Virus record (IMG/VR): IMGVR_UViG_3300043959_000228
DNA length: 64,000 nucleotides
From: a virus
Lineage: Duplodnaviria > Caudoviricetes
Strand: one strand, 5' to 3'
A program made the position numbers and the translations under genes. Shown here piece after piece: positions 7,094-47,936 of this stretch. Within the stretch, counting starts at the first letter, position 1. Every line of letters begins with the position of its first letter. The notes under the pieces are model-generated. The model had not been told where the DNA came from and did not search any database. It saw only the letters and a program-made list of their open reading frames with translations.

Positions 7094-8377
7094 ATGAGTA
7101 ATATGTACGGTATAGCATTAAAGGGTATACATCGTGGTGAATACACTTTATGTAGAGCTTCTGATATCACAACCTGTTCATATCATGATCAATCAAGTCA
7201 TCGAAATATGACGAAAGATGAAGTAGATGCCGAGAATGAAGCAATTATTGCCAAATTGTCAACACCAAAGAAACTAGGAAGAAAATTATCAAGTCTAGCA
7301 TTCTCCGATAGGCGCTCAGCGTCCGTACATTCTCGATCAGCTATTAAGAAAACCTTAGCCGTTGTACTTACCAGCGCGTCATTATGGTCGTTGGCAGCGT
7401 GCGGCCCTCAGCAAACATCAGCCGCATCTACACCAGAACCCTCAACATCAACATCGCAATCTACAGATGGATCATATCAGGAGTACTATGACCAGGCATC
7501 GCAGGGTGCGAAGAGTACCGAGAACGATATCACGTCATCTAAGGCTTATCAAGACGCCAAGAAGAAATTACAAGAATTAAAAAGCTCAGATGCCTATAAA
7601 TATCTTAAAGATTCAGCTTCGTATAAACAGCTTGAGAAAAGTCTCGAAGATACGTTATCATCATATGATCAATCTTCATCAGACGCTACCTCGTCATCGG
7701 GTTCATCCTCATCAACCACATCCTCGGATGCACAGGCCTTATCCTCGTGGTCATCATCAGTAGCGCCAGATTATTATAAAAGTACTGGTTCTGCTGTCCT
7801 ACCATCTACATTACTGCCATCAGGACAATCTGATTACCAAGGATTGGACAGCTTAGGAAGAACTGGATATGCTCATGCAACGCTTAACACGACGATGCGC
7901 TCAGAAGCGAAGGCCCGTGGACGCCAGGAATTTGATAGCACGGCAGACGATGTATCCGGTCTAAAGAATCCAGTCACTGGCCAATCAAATAATTTCAAAA
8001 TGACGAAAACCGGTCTTCATGGATCAACAGGATACTTCTACAATAAGTCACACCTTATCGCTGACTCTTTAGGTGGTAAACCAACAAGAACCAATCTAAT
8101 TACTGGTACTAGGATGCAAAATGTAGGATATAATGGTGGTACACCTGGTGGCATGGCCTATACCGAGACGAAAGCAAGATCGTATCTAGACACTCATCCT
8201 AATGGGACTCTAGCGTATTACGTCCAACCAATCTATCAGGGTAATGAGATCGTTCCTAGGGGTGTAACGGTAGATATGAGGTCCTCTGATTCAGAATTGA
8301 ATGAGCACGTAATCGTCTGGAATTATTGTGATGGATACACTATTGATTATACAACTGGTGCAGTTACAAGGAACTAA
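7094..8377 (+). CDS. DNA/RNA non-specific (His-Me finger) endonuclease, lipoprotein-like, with N-terminal CCHH module
   Basis: GLDSLGRTG, FYNKSHLIADSLGG, NLITGTRMQN, YQGNEIVPRGV (EndA/streptodornase-type); internal lipobox-like SLAAC; N-terminal CRASDITTCSYH. Confidence 0.85.
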   Translation: MSNMYGIALKGIHRGEYTLCRASDITTCSYHDQSSHRNMTKDEVDAENEAIIAKLSTPKKLGRKLSSLAFSDRRSASVHSRSAIKKTLAVVLTSASLWSLAACGPQQTSAASTPEPSTSTSQSTDGSYQEYYDQASQGAKSTENDITSSKAYQDAKKKLQELKSSDAYKYLKDSASYKQLEKSLEDTLSSYDQSSSDATSSSGSSSSTTSSDAQALSSWSSSVAPDYYKSTGSAVLPSTLLPSGQSDYQGLDSLGRTGYAHATLNTTMRSEAKARGRQEFDSTADDVSGLKNPVTGQSNNFKMTKTGLHGSTGYFYNKSHLIADSLGGKPTRTNLITGTRMQNVGYNGGTPGGMAYTETKARSYLDTHPNGTLAYYVQPIYQGNEIVPRGVTVDMRSSDSELNEHVIVWNYCDGYTIDYTTGAVTRN

Positions 8378-8432
8378 AATAGGTATCGTGATATCTTATT
8401 GTTACAAAAAAACAATGAGAGGAGAGCGTTTT

Positions 8433-9101
8433 ATGGCCCTGTTAAAAGCCTACAAGAATTTAGATTTACGTCCTAATGGCGTTGATTCTTTAGGTCGTCT
8501 GACAGCGTTAGAGGAAAGATCAATACGAGATCAATTCAATGACATCTATGGTAAGGATAGATTGAATCTTGATTTACGACGGTTAGACTTAGCAGTGGCT
8601 TCGTCAATAGGATTATCCCCATGGCAGCTTATGATTACGATTCGATCTAAGGAATTACCTCGACTGGATAGGAATGATGACCCTGAAACCATCATAGGAG
8701 TGATGATTGGTCATTTAGCTTCAAAGAACGATCGAGCTACGTTGAAAACTTTTCTGCCAATTCGACAGACACTGCCATTCAAACCACAAATAGACGCCGC
8801 CGTTGACGCGTCACCATCGATTCTCATTATTGACGCCTTTTACAATGATAGCTCTTATCCCATAGCAACCATGACGGCTTTCCTATTACGCAAAGTGCAG
8901 GCATCACGTTTCGGACATTGTATGACGTTCCTTTTCTGGCCTTCGACACGTATAGACGTCAAATTAGGTACACAGTTAGTCAAATTCGGTTATAGGCCAT
9001 ATGGTATTATGAATTTTAGAGCAATACAGGACGCGATCTTTAAGAATGGCAAATGTTTAGCCATGTGGACAAGTAAGACAAAAGACTCTAGAGAAGGATA
9101 A
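8433..9101 (+). CDS. Hypothetical protein (possible divergent GNAT-like fold)
   Basis: Start moved to ATG 8433 after the AGGAG SD; the fold guess is weak. Confidence 0.5.
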   Translation: MALLKAYKNLDLRPNGVDSLGRLTALEERSIRDQFNDIYGKDRLNLDLRRLDLAVASSIGLSPWQLMITIRSKELPRLDRNDDPETIIGVMIGHLASKNDRATLKTFLPIRQTLPFKPQIDAAVDASPSILIIDAFYNDSSYPIATMTAFLLRKVQASRFGHCMTFLFWPSTRIDVKLGTQLVKFGYRPYGIMNFRAIQDAIFKNGKCLAMWTSKTKDSREG

Positions 9102-9106
9102 TAACC

Positions 9107-9763
9107 ATGATTGAAACAACGATCAATAAGATCAAGCAGATATACACTAAGAAGTCATCGTATCTGATAATTGGATCTATTATTACAGGTGTATTATTCA
9201 TCATCGATATTATTGCGGACGTTACGCTAGGATCTGGCAAGAATTGGGCCAATTATATTAGATGCGTCCTTGCTTTACTTACAGCCGTTCCACTATTCTC
9301 AACAGGATATATGATTGCTCTCAAACAGCATGATGGGCAGGTAGAGAAAGCTATTGATACTGGAACGGAATATGTTGAATGGAGATTACGTTTCTCATAT
9401 AGGAAGCGCTTGCAGCATAGTATCATCGTTGGAGCTTGCTTAGCGTTACTGGGTATTATCACGAGCTATACAAGAGTGTACACTATATCGGCTGCCGTTA
9501 TTCTCGCCGGAGGATTCGCGTTAATCGTATATTGTCGTCTTACTAACGATGAACGGACTCTCAAGAATTATGGTGTACCCGACCCTAGGGATGTGCTGGA
9601 TGACAGTGAGGAAGCCGAAGCTCAATTAGCCGATGAGGCTAAACAGGAGCTTAAAGACGAGATTAAACGGAAGAAGAAGGGTCAGGATACTGAGGAAGAT
9701 AATGATGACCAATCATCTGATGACTCAGATGATACGACTAAGCATAATGTTTGGAAGCTATGA
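9107..9763 (+). CDS. Four-TM membrane protein with acidic tail
   Basis: Four hydrophobic segments. Confidence 0.7.
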   Translation: MIETTINKIKQIYTKKSSYLIIGSIITGVLFIIDIIADVTLGSGKNWANYIRCVLALLTAVPLFSTGYMIALKQHDGQVEKAIDTGTEYVEWRLRFSYRKRLQHSIIVGACLALLGIITSYTRVYTISAAVILAGGFALIVYCRLTNDERTLKNYGVPDPRDVLDDSEEAEAQLADEAKQELKDEIKRKKKGQDTEEDNDDQSSDDSDDTTKHNVWKL

Positions 9764-9886
9764 TCATGACGTATCGTCATTGATGAATATTGAGGAATCG
9801 CTATAGCTGTCTACAATTATGGATATAGTCCTGATAGATACATATCGTAGTAAACTTATTCACCTGATCTACGGAGGTTATTTCTT

Positions 9887-10921
9887 ATGAGTTCTAATAC
9901 TAAGAGAGTATATGGAAGAACGCCAGATGGACGTATGACACCATGTAATGCTCAGGATCCTAGAACATGTCGATATCACGTTCACGATGTAGCTCATGTG
10001 TCCCTAACAGCAGATCAAGCAAATAAGATGAATGAGGCCTTGGCCGCTGAGAAGTATCAGTCATCATCTAAAAAGCTGAAACGAGAATCATCAAAGATCA
10101 ACGATTTGGTGAATCAGCCAATTAACGATGTCATTACGATATCTGATAGCGACTTTATGAAGCTTGATGAGGAACTTGATCAAGTCATTCACGATGCTAA
10201 TGATCGTAAGGCTATCACAGAACCATCTCAATATGCTGATATTGATGCTATAGACTATTCTGTTGACAAGCCTGGTGAATCTGAAATTACATGGATGCAA
10301 TCATCTGTCGACCTTAGGGGTCTACCATTAAAAGAGGGGGAGTCTGAAGCCGCCTATGAGGCTCTTAGTAGAGTGAACGATCATCATCGTGACGATGCTA
10401 ATGATTCTACTCCAAGCCCTCTACAGGAAAGATTGATGCAAACTCTTGCATATGATCCGAATATCTCGCAGGATACTCAGGCGGCCTTAGCCCATGACGC
10501 TGACACTATGAGATATGGTGCTAGGACGCTAGTCAATAGCCCATTCGTGACTGATGACCATAAACGTGAGGCTTTTAACACGAGTCCGGCATCAGCATTA
10601 GAGTCTCCATCACTTCCAGGTGACTGCGCTAATCAAATGCTAACATCTGACAACCCATACACTCGTAATGGACAGCCAGTAGATCATCAAGCCGTGTTAA
10701 ACGCTCTTCATCATCCGAATGCTGATCCTAAAATGATTTACGATTATGTCAGAGCGAATAATGATGACGACCAGGCTAAATGGGCAGTGTCCTTAAATCC
10801 TAATGAATCTGTCATTGAGGCTGTGCACGATTATGACGTAGAGGACAACGGGACCGATACGATTATCGTTGATGATCCGAAGAACGACGATACGTCTGAA
10901 TGGCACGATTTCCTGGATTAA
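9887..10921 (+). CDS. Protein with N-terminal CCHH module and C-terminal LRV-like (xxHPN/NPN) helical repeats
   Basis: CNAQDPRTCRYH...H; repeats LAYDPN, LESPS, LHHPN, SLNPN; GGAGG SD. Confidence 0.7.
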   Translation: MSSNTKRVYGRTPDGRMTPCNAQDPRTCRYHVHDVAHVSLTADQANKMNEALAAEKYQSSSKKLKRESSKINDLVNQPINDVITISDSDFMKLDEELDQVIHDANDRKAITEPSQYADIDAIDYSVDKPGESEITWMQSSVDLRGLPLKEGESEAAYEALSRVNDHHRDDANDSTPSPLQERLMQTLAYDPNISQDTQAALAHDADTMRYGARTLVNSPFVTDDHKREAFNTSPASALESPSLPGDCANQMLTSDNPYTRNGQPVDHQAVLNALHHPNADPKMIYDYVRANNDDDQAKWAVSLNPNESVIEAVHDYDVEDNGTDTIIVDDPKNDDTSEWHDFLD

Positions 10922-10969
10922 AGAAGATTAACTAGTAGAACTTCGTAGCCATATGGTACCATATATCAT

Positions 10970-12334
10970 ATGGCTACTATTACGAAATACCGCTGTTCTA
11001 ACTGTCATTCAGTACGGACGTCTGATACTGGTGCATGTCCATCATGCGGATTATATGGAACCATGGAGTTAGTAGTTGAATCGTCTGCTGGACGAAAGAT
11101 ATCTTCGAAAAACACGACTCCACCATCAGGATTATGGACTGTTTCTGAATTGAACAAAGAAGACAATCAGAAAATGTCTACTGGCGTTAAAGAATTCGAT
11201 CGATTGCTTGGTGGGGGTCTGGTCAATGGACAAGTTGTTCTTATTGGTGCTGAGCCTGGTTTTGGTAAATCAACATTATGCTTAGAAATATTGGGTAAGA
11301 TCGCAGGATCTGGTAAGCCAGTATTATATGCATCTGGTGAGGAGTCAGCAATACAGATAGGTGAGCGTGCAAGAAGATTAGGCGAGACATCAGACAATTT
11401 GAAGATTATTAGTACCACGTCTGTAGAGGACGTCATGCAACAGGCTGACGCTATTGAGGCCGAGATTGTATGTGTTGATAGCCTGCAAGCTATGGCTTCA
11501 GCTTCAGTTGATGGAAGTATAGGTGGGATCAGTCAGTCTAAAGAGGCTAGTCTTGCCTTCAAGGATTATGCGAAGAGGACGAATGTGCCATTTTTGCTTA
11601 TTAGTCAGTTTACGAAGAGTGATGAGGTCGCTGGTTCGAATCAAATTCCTCACGTCGTGGACACCATCCTTGTAGGAGACGCTGATAAGGATACGCCATT
11701 GAAATTCTTGAGATCAAGGAAGAACAGGTATGGCGTTACTGGCGTGACTGGTGTGTTCGTCCACGAGAACAATGGATTACGGTCAGTTCAGGATCCATCA
11801 CGATACCTGATGGGAGCAATGAACGCTGATTTGGCCGGATCGGCTATGACTATGATTTCAGACGGCGGTCGCCTCCTACCAGTAGAGATTGACGCTTTAG
11901 TAGCACCAGCAGCCTATGGTAATCCTCAACGAAGATTTGATGGTCTGCAATCTCAACGAGCAACTACCCGCGTAGCAAGATTAATGGTCAGCGCGGAGGA
12001 ATTAAATCTAGACCAGAACGATGTTTTCGTTGGATCTGTCAACGGTATTAAAATCAATGACGCCTCATCTGATCTGGCCATGTTAGCGTCTATCGTATCG
12101 TCAGCTCTTCATCAACCACCGAATGAATACACTATGTGGATTGGCGAAGTTTCATTGACCGGACAAGTCAGGGGTCGTACAATGATTCAAGAGAAGGTTC
12201 GGGAAGCTATACGATTAGGATTTAGTCGAGTAATCATTCCGTCAATGGCTATTGACGCTATACCGAAGTCATTATCTCATAAAATTACTGTGACGCCAGT
12301 CGATATGATTGAGGACATCCTCCATCTTATTTAA
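10970..12334 (+). CDS. radA: DNA repair protein RadA/Sms
   Basis: C4 zinc finger CSNC...CPSC, Walker A GAEPGFGKST, SGEES, KNRYG motif, Lon-like C-domain (GEVSLTG). Confidence 0.93.
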   Translation: MATITKYRCSNCHSVRTSDTGACPSCGLYGTMELVVESSAGRKISSKNTTPPSGLWTVSELNKEDNQKMSTGVKEFDRLLGGGLVNGQVVLIGAEPGFGKSTLCLEILGKIAGSGKPVLYASGEESAIQIGERARRLGETSDNLKIISTTSVEDVMQQADAIEAEIVCVDSLQAMASASVDGSIGGISQSKEASLAFKDYAKRTNVPFLLISQFTKSDEVAGSNQIPHVVDTILVGDADKDTPLKFLRSRKNRYGVTGVTGVFVHENNGLRSVQDPSRYLMGAMNADLAGSAMTMISDGGRLLPVEIDALVAPAAYGNPQRRFDGLQSQRATTRVARLMVSAEELNLDQNDVFVGSVNGIKINDASSDLAMLASIVSSALHQPPNEYTMWIGEVSLTGQVRGRTMIQEKVREAIRLGFSRVIIPSMAIDAIPKSLSHKITVTPVDMIEDILHLI

Positions 12335-12340
12335 GGTATA

Positions 12341-12829
12341 ATGAGTATTATGAATGAAGATCAGGACGAACTCACAGAACTGGGGTCATCATCGATAGAT
12401 CTGCCGGAGATGGTCAATCCTTTCCCGTTTGAGAAGGATTACGTGCCTCAGACGATTCTATCCATGAAGATCGAACAGGTTGGTGATTATAACGATATGG
12501 CTGCGATTAATCAAGCTATTGATACGGTTCGCATAGCCATGTTCAAAATCAACGAGAATCTTCGTGTAGCTGAGGCCAAGGTAGCGTCAGCTAAAATCGC
12601 TTATGATCGAAATTACAATCGATCGTACATCCTTGCTAGCGACGCTAAGACAGAGGGCGTGCGTAAGGCCATCGCGCAGATCAAATCTGAAGCATATGAG
12701 AACAAGCTCGTTGTCAGACAGGACATCGTCCGAGAATTAATACGACGAACCAGACTTATGGCTAATGAATTAGAGGCTCTAAAAACGTTGTCATATAACG
12801 TTAGAAAGGAGATGGATTCATCACGATGA
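12341..12829 (+). CDS. Coiled-coil hypothetical protein (possible UvsY-like recombination mediator)
   Basis: All-helical 162 aa protein cotranscribed with radA; the function is a guess. Confidence 0.5.
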   Translation: MSIMNEDQDELTELGSSSIDLPEMVNPFPFEKDYVPQTILSMKIEQVGDYNDMAAINQAIDTVRIAMFKINENLRVAEAKVASAKIAYDRNYNRSYILASDAKTEGVRKAIAQIKSEAYENKLVVRQDIVRELIRRTRLMANELEALKTLSYNVRKEMDSSR

Positions 12830-25992: not shown

Positions 25993-26027
25993 TTCCCGTA
26001 AATTAAGCGAAGACATATCTTATTTGT

Positions 26028-27631: not shown

Positions 27632-27651
27632 CTTGATATCTACATCATATG
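27632..27651 (+). promoter_or_regulatory. ATATCT-N7-ATG leaderless promoter motif (representative copy; identical 20-mer at 41991-42010)
   Basis: CTTGATATCTACATCATATG precedes both tadB and the IntC-FtsK gene; the same spacing recurs at 6674, 26028, 29408, 39311(-), 39371 and, as ATATAT, at 4600. Confidence 0.7.
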
Positions 27652-29324: not shown

Positions 29325-29407
29325 ATTAATAACCCGTGCAATACTTATATTACCAATTCAACAAGTAATAATGGTCTTTTACAAGATGACATGAATATCT
29401 ATATATT

Positions 29408-29782
29408 ATGAGAACCATGTTGAATAACGCGGAATTAGAAGAAGAGATTGACGATGCATGGGAGCATTTCCTCCTACGATACTCCGCACCAAGATTGCAT
29501 ATTCATTTTGAGGAACCAACGTGTCAGGACGTCGATGGAACCTGGATTTGGATGGAGGCAGATGGTTACTCCATCTTGACCATCAATCATCTTCATATGT
29601 CTAAAATCGTTACCCAGGATCTTGATGAAGCTATCTTCAAAGCCATTTATCCATCACTTCAAGATCTTGCGTCGACAATGGAAGGATCGTATGACGATAA
29701 TATTTTAACGTTATCATCATACGTCAGCGAACGCTGTCATATAAGAGCTTTACAGGAATTATCGTTACAGACGATCAAATAA
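29408..29782 (+). CDS. Hypothetical protein
   Basis: ORF preceded by ATATCT-N7-ATG. Confidence 0.6.
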   Translation: MRTMLNNAELEEEIDDAWEHFLLRYSAPRLHIHFEEPTCQDVDGTWIWMEADGYSILTINHLHMSKIVTQDLDEAIFKAIYPSLQDLASTMEGSYDDNILTLSSYVSERCHIRALQELSLQTIK

Positions 29783-31387
29783 CCTCATAATCTCATCTTT
29801 ATGATCGAGTAATGGACGATAATCAAACTTTGATGAATACTCCGCAGGAGTATGTCTCAATGACGAAGGCTCTCCGTTGGCCTTCCAATTCATCCATAAT
29901 TCACCAGCTCTAGCAAAGATTTCTGTTGGCGCAATATAATGCTTCAATTCACTGTTCGAGACCTTCGTTGTATCAAATCGTTGCTGATAATCGTTGACTA
30001 TCTTCTTGAACTCTGGCCTCATTGACAATTGATGTCCATTAGCGTCTGTAGTAAAATCAATATGATGCATATACTCATGCGTGAATGATGACGGAGACCT
30101 AGGATCGACGGCTATATTTTTATTTGATGGCGTATACACGCCATTAGCGTGATGGCGTCCAGTCATTCTAAATCTAAAATCTGCTGGCACTCTCTGTTTC
30201 GGTAATTGTTGTCGATATGTAGCGTATTCCTTCGATATCGAGGTGAACTTCGCGAGATCGACACTATCGTCAACCTCTATATGTCCGAAATCACGAGCAA
30301 ATGATGAGGATAGGCCAGCTTGTACATGCTTCGGGTCAAGATTCTTTTTATCTTCGTAAACCGTTGCTGCATTCCGAGTATCTGCCCTGCGCTTATATTG
30401 CCTATTCAGCTCGTTATTCCGTTCATCGTTCAATGATGACGATAACTCATCAAGGATAGCGTCATTCACTCGTAACCCAGCATGGATACACGATGTCCGA
30501 GAGAATCTCAATGACGGACCTTTTCTCTGCATAGGATCCTTCTCCTCAGCTATCGCCTTATCATAGGCCTGAAGAACTATTCTAGGATCATCGCTATCGC
30601 ATCCAATGTTCTGAGCTAAATCATGAATCATATGGTCGTCATACGACTGATTCACTAAGGCGTATGGGGACTTCTCTCGATCTAATAAGCCAGCAACTAT
30701 ATGCTCCCTATACTCTAGCTGCTCTTTAGGATGATCGTCAAGAACATGATCGTCGACAGCATCAATAACCGTATGGACGGCCATCAATTGCCCAGCGTCA
30801 ACAACATGGACTTTCTGACCACCACGCTTGAACGTCGCGAATGATTTTAATGCCGAGGAACCGCTAGCACCCTGAACAACGATATATTGATCACCACGTC
30901 CATCAGTAAATAACAATGAATCACCGCCATGATACCGTAAATATGACAATTCAGAATTCATTGGATCTGAAAGTTCTCCAGTCAGCGTCTTCACGTCATG
31001 GGTCTTAAAGACGTGACAGAGCATTTCAGGAGCGTCCTGTTTGAGGTCACCATCATAATTCCTCAATAAATATCTTCCAAGTTTGGTTACACCCTTCACG
31101 CCGGTGTCATCTGGCTTCAATGTAGGAATAGAACCATTGCGTTCATCTGATAACGATACTCTATCAGACAATAATGTTGTGAGTCTAGTAGTACTCTGAT
31201 CAGACGATTCCTGCTCATCTTGCCGATGCAACGAATCATGGATTTGACGCTCGTTATAATCGTCCATAGCCGACGGAGAATACTCTACATGGCTATCAGA
31301 TCGATGGAATCTACATTTTGCTGGATCCTTCGCTCGGCATTTACTCATCATACCAGTAGATTGTGATACACCCATCCAAGTAGTCAT
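29765..31387 (-). CDS. Polyvalent-protein-like: N-terminal CCHH module plus C-terminal zincin/LPD1-like domain
   Basis: CRAKDPAKCRFH...H; SFTHEYMHHID (HExxH) and PTEIFARAGE. Confidence 0.7.
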   Translation of the reverse strand: MTTWMGVSQSTGMMSKCRAKDPAKCRFHRSDSHVEYSPSAMDDYNERQIHDSLHRQDEQESSDQSTTRLTTLLSDRVSLSDERNGSIPTLKPDDTGVKGVTKLGRYLLRNYDGDLKQDAPEMLCHVFKTHDVKTLTGELSDPMNSELSYLRYHGGDSLLFTDGRGDQYIVVQGASGSSALKSFATFKRGGQKVHVVDAGQLMAVHTVIDAVDDHVLDDHPKEQLEYREHIVAGLLDREKSPYALVNQSYDDHMIHDLAQNIGCDSDDPRIVLQAYDKAIAEEKDPMQRKGPSLRFSRTSCIHAGLRVNDAILDELSSSLNDERNNELNRQYKRRADTRNAATVYEDKKNLDPKHVQAGLSSSFARDFGHIEVDDSVDLAKFTSISKEYATYRQQLPKQRVPADFRFRMTGRHHANGVYTPSNKNIAVDPRSPSSFTHEYMHHIDFTTDANGHQLSMRPEFKKIVNDYQQRFDTTKVSNSELKHYIAPTEIFARAGELWMNWKANGEPSSLRHTPAEYSSKFDYRPLLDHKDEIMRLFDRL

Positions 31388-31445
31388 TATTGTACTCCTA
31401 TGATTGATTCGTCATATAGAATATATCATAAGTCTAGCTCTGTAG

Positions 31446-33680
31446 TTAGAGTGACACGACCTTATCAGCTATAGACTTAATGATCTCGTTATGAGCGACA
31501 ATGATGATTTGGCTATCGGTGGAAAGACTTTGCATGGCCTCAAGAATCTCTGATGCACGATCCTCATCCATAGCCGTAAGAATCTCATCGAGGACGAGCA
31601 ATGATGGTGATCCATTCGATAGCATGACACTAATGGCCAGTCGTAAACAAATAGCAACTAAACTCATTTCTCCTCCGCTTAGCTGTCCGGAGTTTTCAAC
31701 TAGCCCATGTTCGTCCTCTACATTAATCATGAACTTATGATCAATGGTCACGGAAACGAACTTACCGTCAGTTATTGTTGAGAGAAGATCAGATGCATAA
31801 TCAGTGATTTGAGGTATTGCCGACAGAATCATATGGGAACGGAATGTTCCCAGAACTTCTACGGAGCCAGAACTGATTTCTAACTTCGACAATAAATCAT
31901 GCTTAGCTTCTCGTTGTTGCGTGATCATCGTGATGATCTTCTTATCAGACGCTATCTGGTTGGATAGAATCTTCTCAGAGCTTTGCGTCTCCGCTATTGA
32001 CACGTGAAGATCGTCTCGTTGAGATCTCTTCGCGTCTAATTCTGATCGCAGTTTCTCCAACTTCTTCTCACTGAAATTAGATGAAGCGGCCTTCAAATCT
32101 TTACGAGCTGATGATAATGATACATCAACAGTCGTTGACCTTTCCATCGTCTTAGCCAAATCATCTCGAACACGCTCGTATTCACGGAGTTTCACAGCGT
32201 CAGCGTCAAATCGATTCATCGTTTTTCGTAATGCTTCTATCTTCGCATCAAGACCATCAAGATCTGCTTGAACAGTAATTCGCTCATTCATGGCCTCATT
32301 GGCCGATGCGATCTTATCAGCATTCCTGTTTTGATTGTCTAATAATCGTTGCATCGTGTCAGATTGCTGCTGATACGATGATATGACTTCCTCACAATGC
32401 TTGACCAATGGATTAGCTTGTTTACTGTCTTGCTTAGCAGTGTCGAATCTTGATTGTAACTCTTTACGAACATGATCCTGGTCGTGAATAGGTTGGAGAC
32501 AGGTTGGACATTCCTGGATACCATGATTGTCAAACGTTCTCAGGGAATCCTCGATTTGACTCATCGATGCTTGGTCAAGAGCTATTCTCTGACGTAACTT
32601 ATCAAGATCTAATACGGCTGAATCGCGATCAATCGCATCAATAGCCAATTGCGTATCATGGATATTCTTATTAAGAATGTCCTGTTCATCAGATGACGGC
32701 CTCATAGCAATCACCGTATCTAAACGAGCGATCTTCATCCGTAACGAGTCCTGTTGCTTCGATTGCTTTGATAACTGCTTTTTCATACTAGCAATATCCT
32801 CAGACGAAGCTATTTGACGGGGTAATCTCTGCTTCAAGTCTGATCGTCTAGCAGTCAATTCTTTCATTCGGTCCTGCAGAATTGAGGACTCGGCTTCTAA
32901 TGTTTTGATCTTTGAGGATAATTCTCTTGTTGATTTCTCCGTGGATTCTAACTGCTTGACCTCATGTTTGAGTGACCTTCCCTCAGCGTCAAGTTTTTGT
33001 TGCTTATCGCGTAAGATTGCTAGTGATTTCGATGTATCCTGGAGTTTTTTCGTATTCTCCGTTAATTGCTTCTGCGTGTCCTCTAATTGATCGTCGTCAA
33101 CGCCATATACCTCAGCGGCCTTCGCGTATGATTTAGCTTCATCCTTAGCGCGCGCCCACGCTCTACTGACAGCCTCTATACCGGTCAATCTCTCCAACAG
33201 TCTTCTACGCTCAGCCTGTCCCGCCGACACTAACTCATCAACATGTTTCTGCTGAACAAGAATCGTTGATAGGAAACTATTCTCATCCAGTCCAATAGTC
33301 TGAACAATCCACTTCTCAGCATGAGTGACCGCTGGCCCAGCGACTAATTCATCACCTACGAAGCACTCACATTGCTGTCCACCATTCTTTGCATTCACAA
33401 TTGAACGTTTAATGGTGATAACCTGATCATTGACCTCTAATTCCACGGACACGAATGATGGATCGTCCTCAGGAGCCTGCATCCTCCTCCATGATGAATT
33501 CTTCATGTTCGTATTAGGCTTAGTGCCATATAACGCCCAAGCCACACCATCAATAATAGACGATTTTCCCTGACCATTCTTGCCTACAATAGCCGTGACA
33601 CCAGTCTCTGCTGGCTCGAAAAGATAATCCTCATGAATACGGAAATTCCGTAGATGGACATGATGTAACTTAATCTTCAT
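31446..33680 (-). CDS. sbcC: SbcC/Rad50 SMC-like ATPase
   Basis: LRNFRIH, Walker A GKNGQGKSS, coiled coil with CPTC zinc hook, LSGGE signature, LVLDE, IVAH. Confidence 0.9.
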   Translation of the reverse strand: MKIKLHHVHLRNFRIHEDYLFEPAETGVTAIVGKNGQGKSSIIDGVAWALYGTKPNTNMKNSSWRRMQAPEDDPSFVSVELEVNDQVITIKRSIVNAKNGGQQCECFVGDELVAGPAVTHAEKWIVQTIGLDENSFLSTILVQQKHVDELVSAGQAERRRLLERLTGIEAVSRAWARAKDEAKSYAKAAEVYGVDDDQLEDTQKQLTENTKKLQDTSKSLAILRDKQQKLDAEGRSLKHEVKQLESTEKSTRELSSKIKTLEAESSILQDRMKELTARRSDLKQRLPRQIASSEDIASMKKQLSKQSKQQDSLRMKIARLDTVIAMRPSSDEQDILNKNIHDTQLAIDAIDRDSAVLDLDKLRQRIALDQASMSQIEDSLRTFDNHGIQECPTCLQPIHDQDHVRKELQSRFDTAKQDSKQANPLVKHCEEVISSYQQQSDTMQRLLDNQNRNADKIASANEAMNERITVQADLDGLDAKIEALRKTMNRFDADAVKLREYERVRDDLAKTMERSTTVDVSLSSARKDLKAASSNFSEKKLEKLRSELDAKRSQRDDLHVSIAETQSSEKILSNQIASDKKIITMITQQREAKHDLLSKLEISSGSVEVLGTFRSHMILSAIPQITDYASDLLSTITDGKFVSVTIDHKFMINVEDEHGLVENSGQLSGGEMSLVAICLRLAISVMLSNGSPSLLVLDEILTAMDEDRASEILEAMQSLSTDSQIIIVAHNEIIKSIADKVVSL

Positions 33681-36312: not shown

Positions 36313-38043
36313 TCAACCTGAGACGTCAATAATCTGAGCATCCTCATGCAACCATAATGGAAGACGATCAAGGTAATATGCATCAGTAATCATAACAATG
36401 ACCTTCACTCCCTTAGGCCAAGCATCAGCGCACCTCTTCCAACTCTTATCACTGAGACCACCATCAGTCGCTAAGATGAACACATCTGGTCTTTCCATTC
36501 TATTCAACGAGCTCACATACTCAAAAGCCGGACCCATATCAGTGCCCCCACCACCCTGAATATTCAGATCATCGACATTATTCACAATGTCAGTGGGCTT
36601 GATTTGAGTGTCCACACAGAACACCTTAAACGTATTCTTCACGCCTCTAGTAACGGCCTTTAATACCTCCTCAGCATTCCTAGCAATTGTAGCCACCTGT
36701 CGATCATCATGCGATACAGAATACGAGGTGTCAATAGCCATCATAACCTTCGGCTGATAACCTATTACACTGGGAAACACGCCATCACGCATGAAGGCAG
36801 ATCCCCTACGATTCACTCGCTTAAACGAGTACTCAGTCTTCCTGTAGGCCTGTTTACTCACAAGATCTTGAGTTATCGCCATTAAATTCCTACGCCAGTC
36901 CATTACTGGTGGCTCAGCAGCCTTAGACAAGTCAATGGCGAACTTCTTATCCATCACACCGAGACCAGGCATCCTGCCGCTAATTGAAGCGATTCGATTA
37001 GCCTCCTCAATCATTTTCGATGTTGCCGACACCTTCTGATCGTTTCTTGATTTTGGTATTCCAGCATCGTCTGCTTCTGCTTGAATGTCTGCTTCAGACG
37101 CATTAGCGCAAATATCAGTATTCCGTTGCTGCTCGTCATGAGCTTCAGACGACTGTTGACTTTCATCATCCTGACTTTGATCCCATGACAACGATCCATC
37201 CTCATTCTCAGTTGGCGATGAGGACGAGGAACGCTGATTAGCATCATCGTCTTCACCCTTATCCCGATGATCTTTTGTGCTAGATGATTGCTGATCATTA
37301 TTAGGGTCATGCTGATCATTAGCGTCAGATGACGTTGATGATTGCTGATTCTCATCGGATGCAGTATCTTGTTCATCAGATGAGTCCTTTGACGATGAAG
37401 GACTCATCTGGGATGATTTCTTGTCGTCGTCTGTCTTCTCATTCGTGTCTTTAGATGATTGCTGATCATTATTAGATGAAGACGCATCTGAGTCTGACGC
37501 AGGATTCGATGCTGCTGACTGACCTGCAGATGGATCTGCTGACTGGCCCTGTCCATGAGGTGCTAACATCTGGTAGTATTGTTCCATACTCTTTCCAGGA
37601 GGCACGTCATAAACGTCTAGACCATTAGCTTCTGCACCGCTAATTTTAGGTATTGGTGATCCATTCGGTAATCTCACTCGGCTGAGCGTGATGACCATCT
37701 GATTGATCTCCAGATCCTGTGCTAAACGGGATATCGATGTATCTGATTGTCCAGCTCTAGTTGATCTACTAGAATAATTGCACACCGCATGTAAACATAT
37801 GTGTACAATGATAGCCTCTCGCTCAGCCTGCGTATAGGTAAAGAAACGATCTCCTAACGCGGCCCTCCAGTCCTTGTCAACACCAGCTACATCAACAATT
37901 TTTGATTTATACGGTTTTAGAAGCATCATTGTCGATCGTAGCATGGTTGAAGCTAATGCGGCGCCACCAATAGACGCGTCCCATATCTGCTTCTCACGCT
38001 CATCCAACGAGTAATCTTTATTTCTCCGTCTCCGTAAAGCCAT
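36313..38043 (-). CDS. DUF2201-type metallopeptidase-like plus VWA domain protein
   Basis: HICLH (degenerate HExxH), AQDLEIN, acidic/Gln linker, MIDAS AIDTSYS, GGGGTDMG, ILATDG. Confidence 0.85.
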   Translation of the reverse strand: MALRRRRNKDYSLDEREKQIWDASIGGAALASTMLRSTMMLLKPYKSKIVDVAGVDKDWRAALGDRFFTYTQAEREAIIVHICLHAVCNYSSRSTRAGQSDTSISRLAQDLEINQMVITLSRVRLPNGSPIPKISGAEANGLDVYDVPPGKSMEQYYQMLAPHGQGQSADPSAGQSAASNPASDSDASSSNNDQQSSKDTNEKTDDDKKSSQMSPSSSKDSSDEQDTASDENQQSSTSSDANDQHDPNNDQQSSSTKDHRDKGEDDDANQRSSSSSPTENEDGSLSWDQSQDDESQQSSEAHDEQQRNTDICANASEADIQAEADDAGIPKSRNDQKVSATSKMIEEANRIASISGRMPGLGVMDKKFAIDLSKAAEPPVMDWRRNLMAITQDLVSKQAYRKTEYSFKRVNRRGSAFMRDGVFPSVIGYQPKVMMAIDTSYSVSHDDRQVATIARNAEEVLKAVTRGVKNTFKVFCVDTQIKPTDIVNNVDDLNIQGGGGTDMGPAFEYVSSLNRMERPDVFILATDGGLSDKSWKRCADAWPKGVKVIVMITDAYYLDRLPLWLHEDAQIIDVSG

Positions 38044-39311
38044 TACAGAACGTCCTTCATCTGAACGTCAGTCCTCTGATTATCATTCCAACCACTCATC
38101 AACTCGCCAATATTGCTACTAGACACCATATTATCTAATTTTCTGATCTTTTCTTTACCGTCAGGAACTGACCGCATAACTTGAACCGCTTTCGCGTGCT
38201 GCATAGTGTAAATACTTCCATTGCCACTATGAATCATAGCCTCAGTAAGCGGGAAGAGCCTATTGACGACGGACGGATTGTTACTTTCACGGGCATAAAT
38301 AAGGCAATTCTCAAATAATGATCCTATCTTATCGAAATCTAATGCTCTAAATGATATGGACGTAGGATTCCTCAGGGCTTCTTCTGGTGTAGGAACAGTA
38401 CTCTGGCTAGAATCCATAAACTCCATGAAACTCTTAGTGGCCTCATATCCCACAAGACCGTTAGCTGATCGTTGTAAAAGCTCTGGCGAGTATCCTTTCT
38501 TATCAGGATAGCGACAGTAAGGTAACTCAGCGGCGAGATTCGTCCATGAACGATTAGACGGAAAGGCCTTCTTAAAAATGTCCTTAGCGGCAGGAGATCC
38601 ATTCAGTCTGTAGACAACATCTGGATCAGCTTTTGGATCCTTCTCTGGAAGTTTATAGACGAGCTTACGATGTTTCTTCAAGAATGCAACGATCTTTCCA
38701 CGCCACCACAATTCATCGTTTGATATGTTCTCAGGATGCCCCCAATTGCTCAGCATACCCTTACTCCAAGACTCAAACGATGGCTCCCATGGCAAGAATT
38801 TCAAACGATTAGACACAGGAAGACCTAATTCGTATCCATCAGTAGCCGTTCCTACGGGATTCATAGCGCCAATGATGATGGTGTCCTTAGGTAACTTCAT
38901 ACCATCAGGAAACTCTCGCTCGTTAAGAATCTGCAACATAGCAGCCTGCACAGCAGGAGTAGAGTTAGAGAACTCATCAAGGAATAGTAACACCTTTTTC
39001 TTGACGAGGATGGTATACTCCCATACTGGAATAGCATACTGTGTGACTGAGATCTTCTGACCATTCGATAACAATTTGTCAACAAGTCGTGGGAATCCGG
39101 TCACATCCTGAGGCTCTTTCTGAGACCCAATAATCGTTATCATGTCCATATGTAAAATCTCATGAGCAAGAGTAGACACTAATGCCGATTTTCCAAGACC
39201 AGGATCACCAACAATCATCTGACTATTATGAGCCTTAATACCAGCCATGAGTGAATAAATGGTATTAGCCGTATACTCATCGTTTAGAAAGCTGTTCTTC
39301 GTATTCTCCAT
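38043..39311 (-). CDS. MoxR/AAA_5-family ATPase
   Basis: GDPGLGKS, DVTGFP, LFLDEFS, VQAAMLQ, GAMNP, NRL, PSNRSW; coupled to the VWA gene. Confidence 0.88.
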   Translation of the reverse strand: MENTKNSFLNDEYTANTIYSLMAGIKAHNSQMIVGDPGLGKSALVSTLAHEILHMDMITIIGSQKEPQDVTGFPRLVDKLLSNGQKISVTQYAIPVWEYTILVKKKVLLFLDEFSNSTPAVQAAMLQILNEREFPDGMKLPKDTIIIGAMNPVGTATDGYELGLPVSNRLKFLPWEPSFESWSKGMLSNWGHPENISNDELWWRGKIVAFLKKHRKLVYKLPEKDPKADPDVVYRLNGSPAAKDIFKKAFPSNRSWTNLAAELPYCRYPDKKGYSPELLQRSANGLVGYEATKSFMEFMDSSQSTVPTPEEALRNPTSISFRALDFDKIGSLFENCLIYARESNNPSVVNRLFPLTEAMIHSGNGSIYTMQHAKAVQVMRSVPDGKEKIRKLDNMVSSSNIGELMSGWNDNQRTDVQMKDVL

Positions 39312-39370
39312 GATAATAAGATATGTACGAATAACGGTTTAAGATTACCGTTCTCGCATATCTACATTAC

Positions 39371-41850: not shown

Positions 41851-41878
41851 CGATGGTCAATTCCTATCCCATCAGATG

Positions 41879-41965: not shown

Positions 41966-42007
41966 TCATGTTATCATGAGAGGTCTTCGTCTTGATATCT
42001 ACATCAT

Positions 42008-43646: not shown

Positions 43647-43783
43647 GAAAACGCTCCTTCAATCATTATTGCAGACAACCTACTCATCATATTAAATTAA
43701 CCATTGACATTATATCACGATGTCACGCCAAAGAGCACCAATGATCATGAATATCTATACGTTAGTATGGATGAGATAAATGG

Positions 43784-44719
43784 ATGGTGGATACAATGAC
43801 CTCTCAGGATGTGACAACACGCGATCATGACGATCAAAAACAGACGGCTAACAAGAAATCGTCATTATCAACAATTAAGATTATCGCATCGGCAGGCGCC
43901 GCAGTAACAGCATCCGTATTGACGAGTATGCTGACAGGATATCTGAACGGCGTTGGTATTGTGGCCGTCACGTCAATTATTATTGCCGTGCTTAGCGAAA
44001 CATACTCTAAGACCTTACGACGAGTGAAAAGAGTTAGTGCTAAACTCGCCCTACAGGCTATTCCTCTACCAGATTCTTCAAAGAACAAATTAATCAATGC
44101 TGTAGAGGACACTGACGAGACCATTACTGATGACGAATCTGATAATGACATACCACCTGCGAGAATATGGGATCGATTCACACGATGGATAGGCCAGCTC
44201 AGTAATACAACGAAGACCATCGTCATGGTGATGTTCATTGCTCTATTAGCCATTGGCGTTAGCTGGGGTGTTACGACGATTACTGATCGACCAGATATCA
44301 CCAATGTCACGCAACGCGTTACCAAGCAAGAGGTCGTTTCATTGTCCTCAGCAGAGAAGACGGCTATTCAAGAAGCGGCCGTCAATGCTGTTCAGTCAAA
44401 GATTAATACTCTGAACACTAAAATACAGACGCAACAAGCGACTATTAAGGATCTCAGCGACCAGATCTCGAAAATGTCCTCAACATCATCGTCATCGCCA
44501 TCCACATCATCAGCGTCTCCGTCACCGACTACTGACTCATCAACCACATCGACATCACCATCCACTGACGATACGACGAAAGACACCGTTAAGACTCTGC
44601 AGGGACAGATTACATCATTAGAAAGTGAGGTCACGGCATTGCAGACAGCTGTTAAAGCATTGCAATCTGAGTCGTCGTCAACGAATAGTAGTAATTCTAA
44701 TACGTCTACAGGAAATTAA
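43784..44719 (+). CDS. Membrane protein with C-terminal coiled coils and Ser/Thr linker
   Basis: Three TMs, two heptad regions. Confidence 0.7.
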   Translation: MVDTMTSQDVTTRDHDDQKQTANKKSSLSTIKIIASAGAAVTASVLTSMLTGYLNGVGIVAVTSIIIAVLSETYSKTLRRVKRVSAKLALQAIPLPDSSKNKLINAVEDTDETITDDESDNDIPPARIWDRFTRWIGQLSNTTKTIVMVMFIALLAIGVSWGVTTITDRPDITNVTQRVTKQEVVSLSSAEKTAIQEAAVNAVQSKINTLNTKIQTQQATIKDLSDQISKMSSTSSSSPSTSSASPSPTTDSSTTSTSPSTDDTTKDTVKTLQGQITSLESEVTALQTAVKALQSESSSTNSSNSNTSTGN

Positions 44720-44967
44720 TGAAACCACGTCATCGTAATAAGAGCTAAATCACTCGGTCGAGTTTGGGCGACTTCACGGAACGTATGATTGCCAGAGAAC
44801 ACATTCGCTATTGACTGTATCGCCCAGATGATCCAATCCCATACCCATCCAAAGAAATTGAAAGGATTGCCGAATACGGATATGATGGCTATGATAAGAC
44901 CAGCCAGTAGGATACCTAAAAGGATCTTCTTAATCATAATGCAACATACTCCATACTCGATTGACAT
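44716..44967 (-). CDS. Small membrane protein
   Basis: Hydrophobic ORF; the real start may be MIKK at 44937. Confidence 0.6.
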   Translation of the reverse strand: MSIEYGVCCIMIKKILLGILLAGLIIAIISVFGNPFNFFGWVWDWIIWAIQSIANVFSGNHTFREVAQTRPSDLALITMTWFH

Positions 44968-44982
44968 AAGGAAGATATCACG

Positions 44983-45840
44983 ATGAATCTAACCACGATC
45001 ACATATCCCTATCATATGAAACGATTATCATCCATAGCTACCATCATCATATCCCTCGGCATGATCATACCATTGTCCGCATGCTCATCCTCAGTTATTT
45101 TCAACTCTACGGCATCACCAACTAGCAGTCATGAGACATCATCACCATCATCGTCTCATGCTCAATCATCGTCAGATGCATCGGTATCAGATGCTAAGTC
45201 CCTGTCATCGTGGTCGTCTGATATTGCTCCGAATTATTATGTAAGCTCAGGTAAGGCCATTCTTCCGAGTACACTGGTTCCAACGGGAACTATTGATTAT
45301 CAAGGATCTAACAGTCAAGGAAAGGCTGGATACGCCCACGCCGTCATCACGTACAAGATGATTGCTGATTCAGCCGGTTGGAGAGCTAAATTCGATTCTG
45401 ATGTTGATGAAATAGCTGGTTGGAAGAATCCAACGACTGGAAAGAGTAATAATCGTGAATCTACAATAGCATTAGTTGGTAAGACGAAGGTTTATCATGG
45501 ATACTTCTATAATAGATCACACCTTGTGGCTGACTCCTTAGGAGGCGCGCCATCAAAGAAGAATCTTATCACCGGAACAAGAATGCAGAATGTTGGTGAC
45601 AATAGCGCGCATCCTGGTGGCATGGCTTACGCTGAATCTAAAGTAAGGTCATATATGAAGCAACATCAAAATGTTACTACGGCATATTATGTCCAACCAG
45701 TCTATCAGGGTGATGAAATTGTTCCTCGTGGTGTGACTATTGACATGAGATCGTCAGATAATCATATTGACGAGCATGTCATCGTATGGAATTATGCAAA
45801 TGGTCATACTATTGATTATCATACAGGCGCGTGGCAGTGA
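44983..45840 (+). CDS. DNA/RNA non-specific endonuclease lipoprotein (paralogue of 7094-8377)
   Basis: Lipobox LSAC; FYNRSHLVADSLGG, NLITGTRMQN, YQGDEIVPRGVTIDMRSSD. Confidence 0.88.
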   Translation: MNLTTITYPYHMKRLSSIATIIISLGMIIPLSACSSSVIFNSTASPTSSHETSSPSSSHAQSSSDASVSDAKSLSSWSSDIAPNYYVSSGKAILPSTLVPTGTIDYQGSNSQGKAGYAHAVITYKMIADSAGWRAKFDSDVDEIAGWKNPTTGKSNNRESTIALVGKTKVYHGYFYNRSHLVADSLGGAPSKKNLITGTRMQNVGDNSAHPGGMAYAESKVRSYMKQHQNVTTAYYVQPVYQGDEIVPRGVTIDMRSSDNHIDEHVIVWNYANGHTIDYHTGAWQ

Positions 45841-45908
45841 GAATCAAACATTTTGCTGAATTCTAATTGATATCTATAATACTACCTATCAATCGTTAAG
45901 GATGCGTT

Positions 45909-46232
45909 ATGAAAAAAATTAGAATATTTATCGTTGGTTTACTCGTTAGTACTGGTATCTTGTCTATCGTTACGGTCATATCAGGTATCGTCTACGCGTT
46001 AGGTCGTCTCAAGGATAATACCAATAAGTATCGGTTCGGGCCAGCAAGGAAGATTGACTATCTATCAAAAATAGCTCATCGGGCTAATAGGGCATTAGAT
46101 GAATCAGCTATTGAGGAATGGCGTTCCGCCCAAGAAGAGGATCGTCAGCATTATGACGCGATTGAGGATGAGCATGACCGCTTACTGCGTGAAGCTCAGA
46201 AGAACGGTACTTGGGGCAAATCGTCAAAGTAA
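45909..46232 (+). CDS. Small single-TM protein
   Basis: N-terminal TM with charged helical tail. Confidence 0.6.
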   Translation: MKKIRIFIVGLLVSTGILSIVTVISGIVYALGRLKDNTNKYRFGPARKIDYLSKIAHRANRALDESAIEEWRSAQEEDRQHYDAIEDEHDRLLREAQKNGTWGKSSK

Positions 46233-46258
46233 CACCGCTAATATTTGTATTATAATAT

Positions 46259-46298
46259 ATCGTAATGGCCAGATCAATTTTGATCTGGCCATTACGAT
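46259..46298. terminator. Bidirectional terminator hairpin
   Basis: ATCGTAATGGCCAGATCA-attt-TGATCTGGCCATTACGAT between convergent genes. Confidence 0.8.
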
Positions 46299-46316
46299 TA
46301 TTAGGGTGTTACGTCG

Positions 46317-46505
46317 TTACATGAAGAATCCGTGAGACGCTCCTTGACCATCGTCAATTTTACGACTAATCTCATAATATTCTTTTCGCAATTCAGGGTC
46401 TACTTCTTCCTGAGCCTTGCGATCAACGCCTCGTCGAACACTCCATCCAAGAACTAATGAAATGATAACGATGACAATAACACCACCGGTAATAATCATC
46501 CACAT
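46317..46505 (-). CDS. Small single-TM protein
   Basis: AAGGAG SD; N-terminal TM. Confidence 0.6.
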   Translation of the reverse strand: MWMIITGGVIVIVIISLVLGWSVRRGVDRKAQEEVDPELRKEYYEISRKIDDGQGASHGFFM

Positions 46506-46538
46506 AATTGGCTCCTTATTATAACGTCATCAACGTGT

Positions 46539-47936
46539 TCATTGTACCTGCCAATCTTGTCGAATAACATCATTAGATATTGACAGTTTCTGAACAACAC
46601 CATGACGATCAACGACTGCTCGACGAATAGTATTCCACGATTCACCCGGACCATGGCCTATCCTCTCCGCATATTGGTAATTAGGATCAGACTCTGATTG
46701 TATAAGAAATTGATCGCGATCATTCCTTCCAAGAATAGTTACGATATTAGCGTCATTCTTCGATTGTTGATACCTCGTAATAATTCCTGCACGATCGTGC
46801 TCTGATAACTTGACTGGTTTCATACCATTGAATGATTGCAATCGTAATGCTTGCTCATCAAGAATCTGCTTCGCATTCAACGCATGATCACGTTGTTGCT
46901 GAGCTCTCGTCATCGCATCTTTAATCTGGTTAGACTGACCACGTAACTTTCGCTCTCGATCTCTTCTCGACCATAACGACGATCCTAAATCGTGCGTCAT
47001 AGAACTGATATCCTGCTTCCTACCCGCATGACGTAAAGCTGTCTCAATATGAGCAGTGTCTGACTCTAATCCTTTCAGACCTCTTTTATCGTGAGTAAGA
47101 TCAGATTGAAGATATGATTGCAATCCGGAAACAATGCTCGCAGAGTCTTGAGCTTCAGCATCTAAACCAGCTTTCACATTAATTAATGACGCCGGCAATG
47201 AAATCGACCATTGGGATGTACGATGCATCGATCCTGGCTTGTCTCCTCTGAACGTGAAGGACACTTTATCGCCATTCCGAGTACATGACAGGATATCTTG
47301 ATGATTATTCAGCAATGACGATCCTAACGCGTCTTGCCTACGCTGAATCCCCTCTAAATAACGCTCTCCGTGAGGCATTAGATTTCTGATATTCATAGTT
47401 TGATGTTGCAATACTGATACATCGTTAGGATTACGCATGGCCTTCTGGGCATCAGACAGCGATTGCTGTCGTTGAAGATGAGCATCCAGAGCAGCCTGAG
47501 CAGTCTTTCTAATAACAGTATGATCCTTCTGATCATATAAGGACTCAGGATTCAATTGATCGTTAATATCCTGTAATTGAGCTTCAGATTTAGCTGCATA
47601 CTGATCATACTCAGCGTTGATTGCATCTGCATCGTAATGAATTAGAGCATCTCTCGTCTCACGCCATTGTCGATTAAAATCATCTGCGGATAATCCATCA
47701 ATTAGGGACTCGTCAATATCCATATCGTCCTGCAAGTTGACACGAAATGGCTGATTAGACAATTTCTTTGATGATGATGCTCTCTGATATACATCCTCTA
47801 TAGCTTGATCAACTTCAGCACGAGTTGTATAATGCTTCAAAGGAGTACCATCAGCTTGCTTATGATATCGACAATGCGCTGGGTCCTTCGCTCTACATAC
47901 TTTACGAACATTACCCTCTCCAATTACATAAGCCAT
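46539..47936 (-). CDS. Protein with N-terminal CCHH module and coiled-coil body
   Basis: CRAKDPAHCRYH...H; GAGGAG SD. Confidence 0.7.
   Translation of the reverse strand: MAYVIGEGNVRKVCRAKDPAHCRYHKQADGTPLKHYTTRAEVDQAIEDVYQRASSSKKLSNQPFRVNLQDDMDIDESLIDGLSADDFNRQWRETRDALIHYDADAINAEYDQYAAKSEAQLQDINDQLNPESLYDQKDHTVIRKTAQAALDAHLQRQQSLSDAQKAMRNPNDVSVLQHQTMNIRNLMPHGERYLEGIQRRQDALGSSLLNNHQDILSCTRNGDKVSFTFRGDKPGSMHRTSQWSISLPASLINVKAGLDAEAQDSASIVSGLQSYLQSDLTHDKRGLKGLESDTAHIETALRHAGRKQDISSMTHDLGSSLWSRRDRERKLRGQSNQIKDAMTRAQQQRDHALNAKQILDEQALRLQSFNGMKPVKLSEHDRAGIITRYQQSKNDANIVTILGRNDRDQFLIQSESDPNYQYAERIGHGPGESWNTIRRAVVDRHGVVQKLSISNDVIRQDWQVQ

Follow-up and report, generated by a model that had tools for sequence, protein, structure and literature searches.

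Why should four proteins that are unrelated over most of their length begin with one and the same small cysteine- and histidine-bearing motif? The question is raised by a 64,000-nucleotide stretch of DNA (IMG/VR record IMGVR_UViG_3300043959_000228; hereafter the window, meaning the whole stretch), which is part of a ~490-kb (491,046 bp) uncultured plasmid-like element. An initial annotation, made from the letters alone, had noticed the motif within the first ~35 residues of four open reading frames (ORFs), and had proposed that it is a zinc-binding N-terminal address label grafted onto diverse cargoes. Using a combination of methods (pattern and profile searches, structure prediction and comparison of upstream regions in related elements), we found that the motif is the core of a conserved N-terminal module, called the head below, which precedes many unrelated cargoes, tends to lie behind its own class of promoter-like box and may serve its proteins as a portable docking handle.

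The shared N-terminal head and its family

A six-frame regular-expression scan of the window, run with a strict and a loose form of the motif, confined both forms to four sites, which are the four that had been annotated (4/4):

7151-7186, + strand: P1 motif CRASDITTCSYH, first Cys being residue 20 of ORF 7094-8377
9944-9979, + strand: P2 motif CNAQDPRTCRYH, first Cys being residue 20 of ORF 9887-10921
31339-31304, - strand: P3 motif CRAKDPAKCRFH, first Cys being residue 17 of ORF 29765-31387
47897-47862, - strand: P4 motif CRAKDPAHCRYH, first Cys being residue 14 of ORF 46539-47936

All four motifs lie 13-25 residues past the ATG of ORFs of 344-540 amino acids (aa), every one of these starts (4/4) is preceded by a strong Shine-Dalgarno sequence, and the tails of the four proteins belong to different families, as judged by BLAST. 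Alignment with relatives showed that the conserved unit spans ~66 residues, the motif located 13-25 residues from the start being its core. A head profile built from nine N-termini and run over the window in six frames returned 66.7-83.3 bits for the four ORFs and <=7.5 bits for all else, which excludes chance as an explanation of the head shared in the window. The four heads are composed as follows:

7094..7291, + strand: P1 head module, aa 1-66; hairpin, C20/C28/H31/H36, helix, KKLGRK linker motif; 76 bits
9887..10084, + strand: P2 head module, aa 1-66; C20/C28/H31/H37, helix 42-59, KKLKR in a disordered linker; 77 bits
31190..31387, - strand: P3 head module, aa 1-66; C17/C25/H28/H33, loose linker motif SLHR; 83 bits
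47739..47936, - strand: P4 head module, aa 1-66; C14/C22/H25/H35, long-loop subtype, KKLSN linker; 67 bits

In the family profile alignment (116 sequences), the head begins with a Y-G...D-G...T hairpin, which is followed by C-[RK]-A-K-D-P-x2-C-[RP]-[YF]-H, by a second His 4-9 residues further on, by a helix with the pattern T..EA...NE and, after 8-13 variable residues past the helix, by L-[SKR]-K (hereafter L-x-K). The Cys-x7-Cys-x2-His-x4-9-His set is invariant or nearly so. The Gly-containing lead-in, the second His and the NE helix that had been described for the four ORFs turned out to be family-wide traits, as the Gly ahead of the first Cys occurs in 103/116 sequences, the second His in 116/116 and the Glu of the helix N-E in 106/116. 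In the linker, L64 is present in 96/115 sequences, position 66 is Lys in 82/115 and Arg in 11/115, and an L-x-K lies 40-49 residues past the first Cys in 59/113.

The fold predicted by AlphaFold2 from the 116-row alignment is a three-stranded sheet (strands 7-11, 17-19 and 38-40) plus a helix (42-59), modelled confidently over residues 1-60 (predicted local distance difference test, pLDDT, 87-96), so that the structure prediction suggested in the initial annotation yielded a compact domain. Residues 61-90, including L-x-K, are predicted to be disordered, and the linker that follows the head is mildly basic (net +1.65 per 40 residues). From the near-invariance of the four Cys/His residues and the confidently modelled fold, metal binding appears plausible, and the metal is probably zinc. 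The portability, the N-terminal position and the near-invariant ligands of the proposed zinc-binding label have thus stood, whereas the zinc itself is read from residue conservation.

Catalogues of known domains returned no counterpart of the head. In Pfam, no family matched the four 70-aa N-termini at E<=10; the NCBIfam scan gave noise only, and the head profile found no relative among PDB sequences (best E 0.31, over 12 residues). Searching the PDB with the modelled head, Foldseek returned nothing at E<=0.001, VIA-align against 48,161 chains reached a best Z of 3.2, in a size range where small domains match poorly, and the ESM Atlas feature search gave no usable match. Similarly to classical zinc fingers (C2H2, zinc ribbon, treble clef) and to the ZAS anti-sigma factors (HxxxCxxC), the head is a small domain with four Cys/His ligands, but its C-x7-C-x2-H-x4-9-H spacing fits none of them and its helix carries no ligand. 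In particular, the classical C2H2 pattern (C-x2-4-C-x12-H-x3-5-H, with the His residues in the helix) is not followed, the head helix falling past the last ligand. The head is an uncatalogued small domain, in line with the earlier remark that the module has no characterised name, while the principle of one marker module on many cargoes is already known.

A profile search of 1.84 billion (1.84e9) representative proteins, with a threshold of E<=1e-3, returned 114 clusters, of which 113 are true (P0014 was rejected as a repetitive false match). The match begins within the first 47 residues in all of them (113/113), hence always at the N-terminus and never at the random internal positions that would have spoken against a label, and the tails fall into ~50 unrelated cargo families by BLAST, which bears out the idea of a label grafted onto diverse cargoes. 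The cargoes that Pfam and PHROGs recognise are a minority, comprising GmrSD_C/HNH nucleases, an RNase_T-like exonuclease, HEAT/LRV repeats and domains of unknown function (DUFs).

The carriers of the head are plasmid-like elements of 420-536 kb. One of them (G001), found by the motif pattern scan, is a 419,707-bp IMG/VR record with terminal repeats that is syntenic with the window at 26-38 kb (~70% nucleotide identity). Other tagged proteins are on contigs of up to 484-536 kb, among them L015, which is syntenic with the window at 1-20 kb. G001 also holds a complete head-only gene, an 86-residue open frame (called as 85 aa) with a GTTAGAT-type box of the kind described below. The motif pattern scan of species genomes gave one match, a chance one in a short GC-rich ORF, and near-identical DNA is absent from the plasmid and phage collections searched with the window. 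Among sequencing runs, none of RNA is listed as containing the DNA, and the only one that contains it in full comes from bioreactor sludge and may be its source.

Three further observations concern the heads as genes. Public gene calls start P3 (500 aa, P0178) and P2 (297 aa, P0215) at internal Met codons in spite of the strong upstream ribosome-binding sites, so that automatic annotation hides the head. In L019 (8959-12723, + strand), three tandem paralogues of one cargo family (333, 444 and 439 aa) each have a head and a TAGAT-type box, which demonstrates that entire promoter-head-cargo cassettes have been duplicated locally. Upstream of P4, in the P4 frame, the short ORF MTIYGLDYRYHDDGL (47949-47996, - strand) reaches its stop four codons before the ATG; its sequence resembles a head that has collapsed (YG...RYH), the 10-mer ATGGCTTATG recurs at a distance of 23 nucleotides (nt), and recombination at the head may have left the ORF behind as a relic.

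Cargoes, exchangeable leaders and a second head class

Each tagged protein consists of the head and one cargo region. Those of the window are:

7094..8377, + strand: P1, 427 aa; head, lipoprotein signal at ~aa 84-103 (~7343-7402), Ser-rich linker, Endonuclea_NS_2 at aa 293-397 (~7970-8284)
9887..10921, + strand: P2, 344 aa; head and an acidic cargo of no known family, the largest cargo family (12 clusters)
29765..31387, - strand: P3, 540 aa; head and a cargo with HEYMH at aa 437-441 (~30065-30079)
46539..47936, - strand: P4, 465 aa; head and a cargo of no known family

P1 had been called a nuclease, correctly so, since its C-terminal domain matches the Pfam family Endonuclea_NS_2 (5.8e-17). 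Its head is followed by a basic stretch and then by a hydrophobic segment, in which the lipobox LAAC is found at ~residue 100; three relatives share this layout. Placed ahead of a lipoprotein signal peptide, the P1-family head would have to stay cytoplasmic and come off during export. The window encodes another non-specific nuclease (Endonuclea_NS_2 and Endonuclease_NS; 44983-45840, + strand), which is headless and could provide a natural untagged comparison for P1.

For P3, earlier described as zincin/LPD1-like, what could be established is a conserved HExxH, kept in 41/41 homologues of the P3 cargo; no Pfam family fits this cargo. The P3 gene lies directly downstream of SbcC (31446-33680, - strand), and in the relative L018 the P3 start overlaps the SbcC stop. 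PDB sequence searches with P2, P3 and P4 gave no match. Immediately upstream of P4, and in the same orientation, is a cation-efflux gene of the CDF, zinc-exporter type (48202-49293, - strand; Cation_efflux, 2.2e-31), which may be there by coincidence or may serve the metal supply of the Cys/His heads.

Head variants with the pattern WH..P(D/N)G..C..C..H were also seen, and a richer profile revealed variant heads on three more proteins of G001:

NAD-dependent DNA ligase (LigA), 748 aa, adenylation domain from residue 117
superfamily 2 (SF2) helicase, 1028 aa
Zeta_toxin-domain protein

The head is not bound to the P3 cargo. Among the 41 homologues of the P3 cargo, 22 have the Cys/His head, while the rest have other leaders, all with HExxH kept. 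These alternative leaders read FDPNEHPR..GEF, MV(R/I)D..G.SH.PKG.P...G.Y or a C-x5-C variant (P0183-P0188, P0202, P0204-P0209), and one of the headless homologues occurs in the cultured Bifidobacterium sp. SO1 (L042, 61.5% GC), beside an MmeI-type restriction gene. Different leaders on one cargo indicate that the heads are interchangeable; swapping is shown for the P3 family alone, because the search with the P2 cargo gave only one relative. Between orthologues, the head (53-55% identity) is conserved as well as the cargo (43-50%).

In addition, G001 encodes a second, Cys-free head class, M.DHGEPP..GATWVE.YERAGVHVSGYWRG, in 12 genes, half of which are behind GTTAGAT. Examples from G001 (L021-L041) are:

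L024:3727-4110, - strand: Cys-free head
L025:8746-9465, + strand: Cys-free head
L026:11259-12287, - strand: Cys-free head

This class has no Pfam match, is rare in the databases (15 clusters) and is missing from the window. It is followed, ~20 residues on, by an invariant L-x-K located at the same distance as in the Cys/His class, so that the linker motif is common to two unrelated heads. Both classes together make up ~5% of the G001 genes.

Promoter-like boxes and the host elements

The box [GC][TA]TAGA[TC], mostly GTTAGAT, is located 46-54 nt ahead of P1, P2 and P4, and occurs in the window at 3/4 tagged genes versus 1/53 others:

7040..7046, + strand: GTTAGAT box of P1, 54 nt before the start
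9833..9839, + strand: GATAGAT box variant of P2, 54 nt before the start
31432..31437, - strand: CTAGAC of P3, 50 nt before the start; weak and outside the 7-nt pattern, the G001 orthologue having GTTAGAT
47976..47982, - strand: GTTAGAT box of P4, 46 nt before the start

In G001, GTTAGAT is near 12/22 head genes versus 13/393 others (Fisher p=5e-11). The GTTAGAT-type box recurs in contigs of differing GC content, and in the collected upstream regions of tagged genes GTTAGAT is found in 14/26 and a looser box in 21/26. No conserved -35 partner of GTTAGAT is visible in 17 aligned upstream regions. Two known promoter types were considered and rejected, namely the PafBC/RecA-NDp promoter, the core of which (TGTC(A/G)GTG-N8-TAnnnT) is in 0/26 upstream regions, and Frpo-like hairpins, as the inverted repeats of the window are terminator-like and placed elsewhere.

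A different box, ATATCT, stands exactly 13 nt ahead of the ATG of the TadA, TadB, MoxR-like and FtsK/TcpA-like genes, and of no tagged gene (0). Its sites in the window (approximate) are:

6661-6666: ATATCT of ORF 6674
26015-26020: ATATCT of TadA
27636-27641: ATATCT of TadB
29395-29400: ATATCT of ORF 29408
39319-39324, - strand: ATATCT of the MoxR-like gene
39358-39363: ATATCT of ORF 39371
41995-42000: ATATCT of the C-half of the FtsK/TcpA-like gene (42008)

Since the ATATCT and GTTAGAT classes are mutually exclusive in the window, the tagged set appears to be a regulon separate from the transfer and pilus machinery.

As to the elements, the window encodes TcpC-like, TadA, TadB, FtsK/TcpA-like, RarA, RadA, SSB and SbcC proteins, together with a likely MoxR-like gene (38043-39311, - strand) suggested by AAA_3/AAA_5 matches and by synteny with L018, whereas G001 has a VirB4-like gene (163 bits). 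The gene of the FtsK/TcpA-like coupling ATPase of the window is split by an intein, its C-half starting from 42008. In G001, no match exceeded the cut-off for TerL_ATPase, Terminase_6N, HK97 capsid, portal or sheath (PF03354, PF03237, PF05065, PF04860, PF04984), although very divergent genes could escape such a search. From the presence of VirB4, TcpC and Tad genes and the lack of detected phage head genes, we read the elements as giant, plasmid-like and probably conjugative, and their hosts are probably actinobacteria. N-terminal-only matches with diverse C-domains on elements with VirB4, TcpC and Tad are what the initial annotation had expected of a profile scan. IMG/VR files the circular-looking 419.7-kb G001 as a complete virus, and yet the searches of it for four relaxase families and for terminase, capsid, portal and sheath found nothing. 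An identity with the Inocle giant elements of oral streptococci was rejected, because these have a GC content of 24-32% (PMC12340149) versus 42-48% for the window and 43-53% for its relatives.

What the head may do

We propose, with even confidence, that the head acts as a portable handle, for address or docking, by which a co-regulated enzyme set is brought to a common partner. This proposal fits the facts that the head is strictly N-terminal, that it can be exchanged on one cargo, that two head classes have a linker motif in common, that the tagged genes have a promoter class to themselves and that one face of the helix is conserved. The head would then be the address part, neither catalytic nor cargo-specific; its helix face and L-x-K would dock the tagged enzymes (nucleases, the HExxH protein, the ligase, the helicase and the zeta-like kinase) on one partner, encoded by the element or by the host. 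As for the destination, the leading idea, which draws on the analogy with the cargo set of polyvalent proteins and to which we give a probability of about one third, is that the tagged proteins are delivered, or act, together with the element DNA when it enters a new cell; otherwise they may gather at a hub within the donor.

Several of the above results weigh against this proposal, and chiefly against transfer with the DNA, which they weaken. The P1-family head, being ahead of a cleavable lipoprotein signal, would not be able to travel with the mature nuclease. The cargo is mixed, in that the ligase, the helicase and the SbcCD-coupled P3 resemble enzymes of DNA maintenance, for which a DNA-binding finger could be required instead, and the label of an "effector repertoire" fits only a part of it. 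The box of the tagged genes is unlike the one used by Tad, FtsK-like and MoxR genes, and the tagged genes are dispersed along the element instead of being clustered with VirB4. No link was found to the T4SS/Tad/FtsK/MoxR machinery that had been suggested as the reader of the label (T4SS, type IV secretion system). Finally, G001 has no relaxase of the four families searched (MobA/MobL, Relaxase, Rep_trans, TrwC).

These points bear directly on the possibility that the head is a conjugation signal read by the coupling ATPase of a T4SS, which would export the tagged proteins to recipients. The VirB4-like, TcpC-like, FtsK/TcpA-like and Tad genes of the elements, the undetected phage genes and the interchangeability of the leaders, which is what signals should display, all argue for it, as does a cargo (HExxH peptidase, zeta-like kinase, SF2 helicase, nucleases) that resembles the domains of polyvalent proteins (PMC5512222). 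We nonetheless regard such a signal as doubtful, in view of the promoter class, of the lipoprotein signal behind the nuclease head and of the relaxase search. The T4SS signals known to us are C-terminal or internal, and never folded N-terminal metal domains. The most elaborate version, in which the two head classes with their L-x-K and private promoter, replaced on orthologous cargo elsewhere by short EHPR-type peptides, would form a modular sorting system whose one receptor sends the tagged proteins with the DNA through the T4SS, and hence a new Gram-positive transfer signal, is equally tentative. A nucleic-acid-binding zinc finger that tethers DNA enzymes to the element DNA, to nicked DNA or DNA ends, or to single-stranded DNA as it arrives would explain why the identifiable cargo is largely DNA-acting (EndoNS, HNH/GmrSD_C, RNase_T, LigA, SF2 helicase, the SbcCD partner) and why the linker is mildly basic, and DNA-sensing N-terminal zinc fingers do exist in ligase III, PARP and primases. 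Yet a strict N-terminal placement (113/113) is unusual for such a finger, the head is also found on a zeta-like kinase, on proteins with HEAT/LRV repeats and ahead of a signal peptide, its place can be taken by short disordered leaders or by a Cys-free class, and its model matched no known DNA-binding finger (in a comparison to which small domains lend themselves poorly). We consider a DNA finger a serious but unlikely rival.

The two remaining explanations treat the head as a part to be processed or packaged. That head and L-x-K form a pro-sequence or stability tag, cut at the linker or handed over to a protease or unfoldase of the AAA+ type, thereby timing or restraining potentially toxic enzymes, would agree with the short L-x-K kept in a disordered stretch behind two unrelated heads, and with the ClpB-like ATPase gene found nearby in one relative. 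Polyvalent proteins are thought to be self-processed by HExxH peptidases (PMC5512222), and one tagged cargo has HExxH. Such a tag is distinctly unlikely, however, given that the window copies of the motif are loose (KKLGRK, KKLKR, SLHR, KKLSN) and that a head-only protein would be purposeless. A virion-packaging signal, the elements then being giant phages, would suit the filing of G001 as a virus with terminal repeats and the Uroviricota label carried by the ESM Atlas clusters of the family, and an N-terminal leader with a linker motif does resemble a cleavable capsid-targeting sequence; but the complete G001, with its VirB4-like and Tad genes and without matches to the phage families listed above, makes packaging highly improbable.

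The docking handle that we prefer has partial parallels in known systems. The capsid-targeting sequence of phage T4 internal proteins (IPI-III, Alt) is a stretch of ~10 residues without structure, which the prohead protease cleaves at L-x-E, and the Dar proteins of phage P1 are packaged too; such packaging leaders are, like the head, short N-terminal leaders on unrelated proteins, with a conserved linker motif, but the head is folded and ~60 residues long, and G001 is without detected capsid, portal and terminase genes. XVIPCD (Xanthomonas T4SS effectors), MIX and RIX (type VI secretion) and LXG (type VIIb toxins) are marker domains, each being, similarly to the head, one module on many unrelated cargoes, including nucleases, that marks membership of a set. 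They have no similarity to the head in sequence or detected fold, XVIPCD is C-terminal whereas the head is N-terminal, and the head, a Cys/His mini-domain, has a ligase and a helicase among its cargo and no identified immunity genes. Genes of type VI or type VII secretion were not seen either, no search aimed at them having been made. The P1 family is laid out like anti-sigma factors, with a cytoplasmic metal domain, a membrane segment and an outside domain. Polyvalent proteins of conjugative elements and phages, thought to enter with the DNA and carrying two to fifteen effector domains per polypeptide (Iyer, Burroughs, Anand, de Souza, Aravind 2017, PMC5512222), are likewise encoded by mobile elements with T4SS-type genes and have an overlapping cargo, and in both cases an enzyme set is suggested to be deployed together. 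The difference is that here the enzymes are encoded by separate genes, each with a small Cys/His head and its own box, and not as one multidomain chain. That article gives no sign of the head, the word "cysteine" being absent and the nine uses of "zinc" that were inspected all referring to zincin peptidases.

The recognition of giant extrachromosomal elements (0.4-0.5 Mb) is only beginning, and for the majority of their genes an explanation is lacking. The head labels in them a defined, co-regulated subset of proteins, and can be used both as a search key for the cargo repertoire and as a bait for the receptor. If this receptor is a transfer machine, no protein-transfer signal would have been defined before the head for Gram-positive-type conjugation, and it could become a tool for delivering proteins between bacteria; should the head instead bind DNA or dock on a hub, it would still define a new family of small metal-binding folds.

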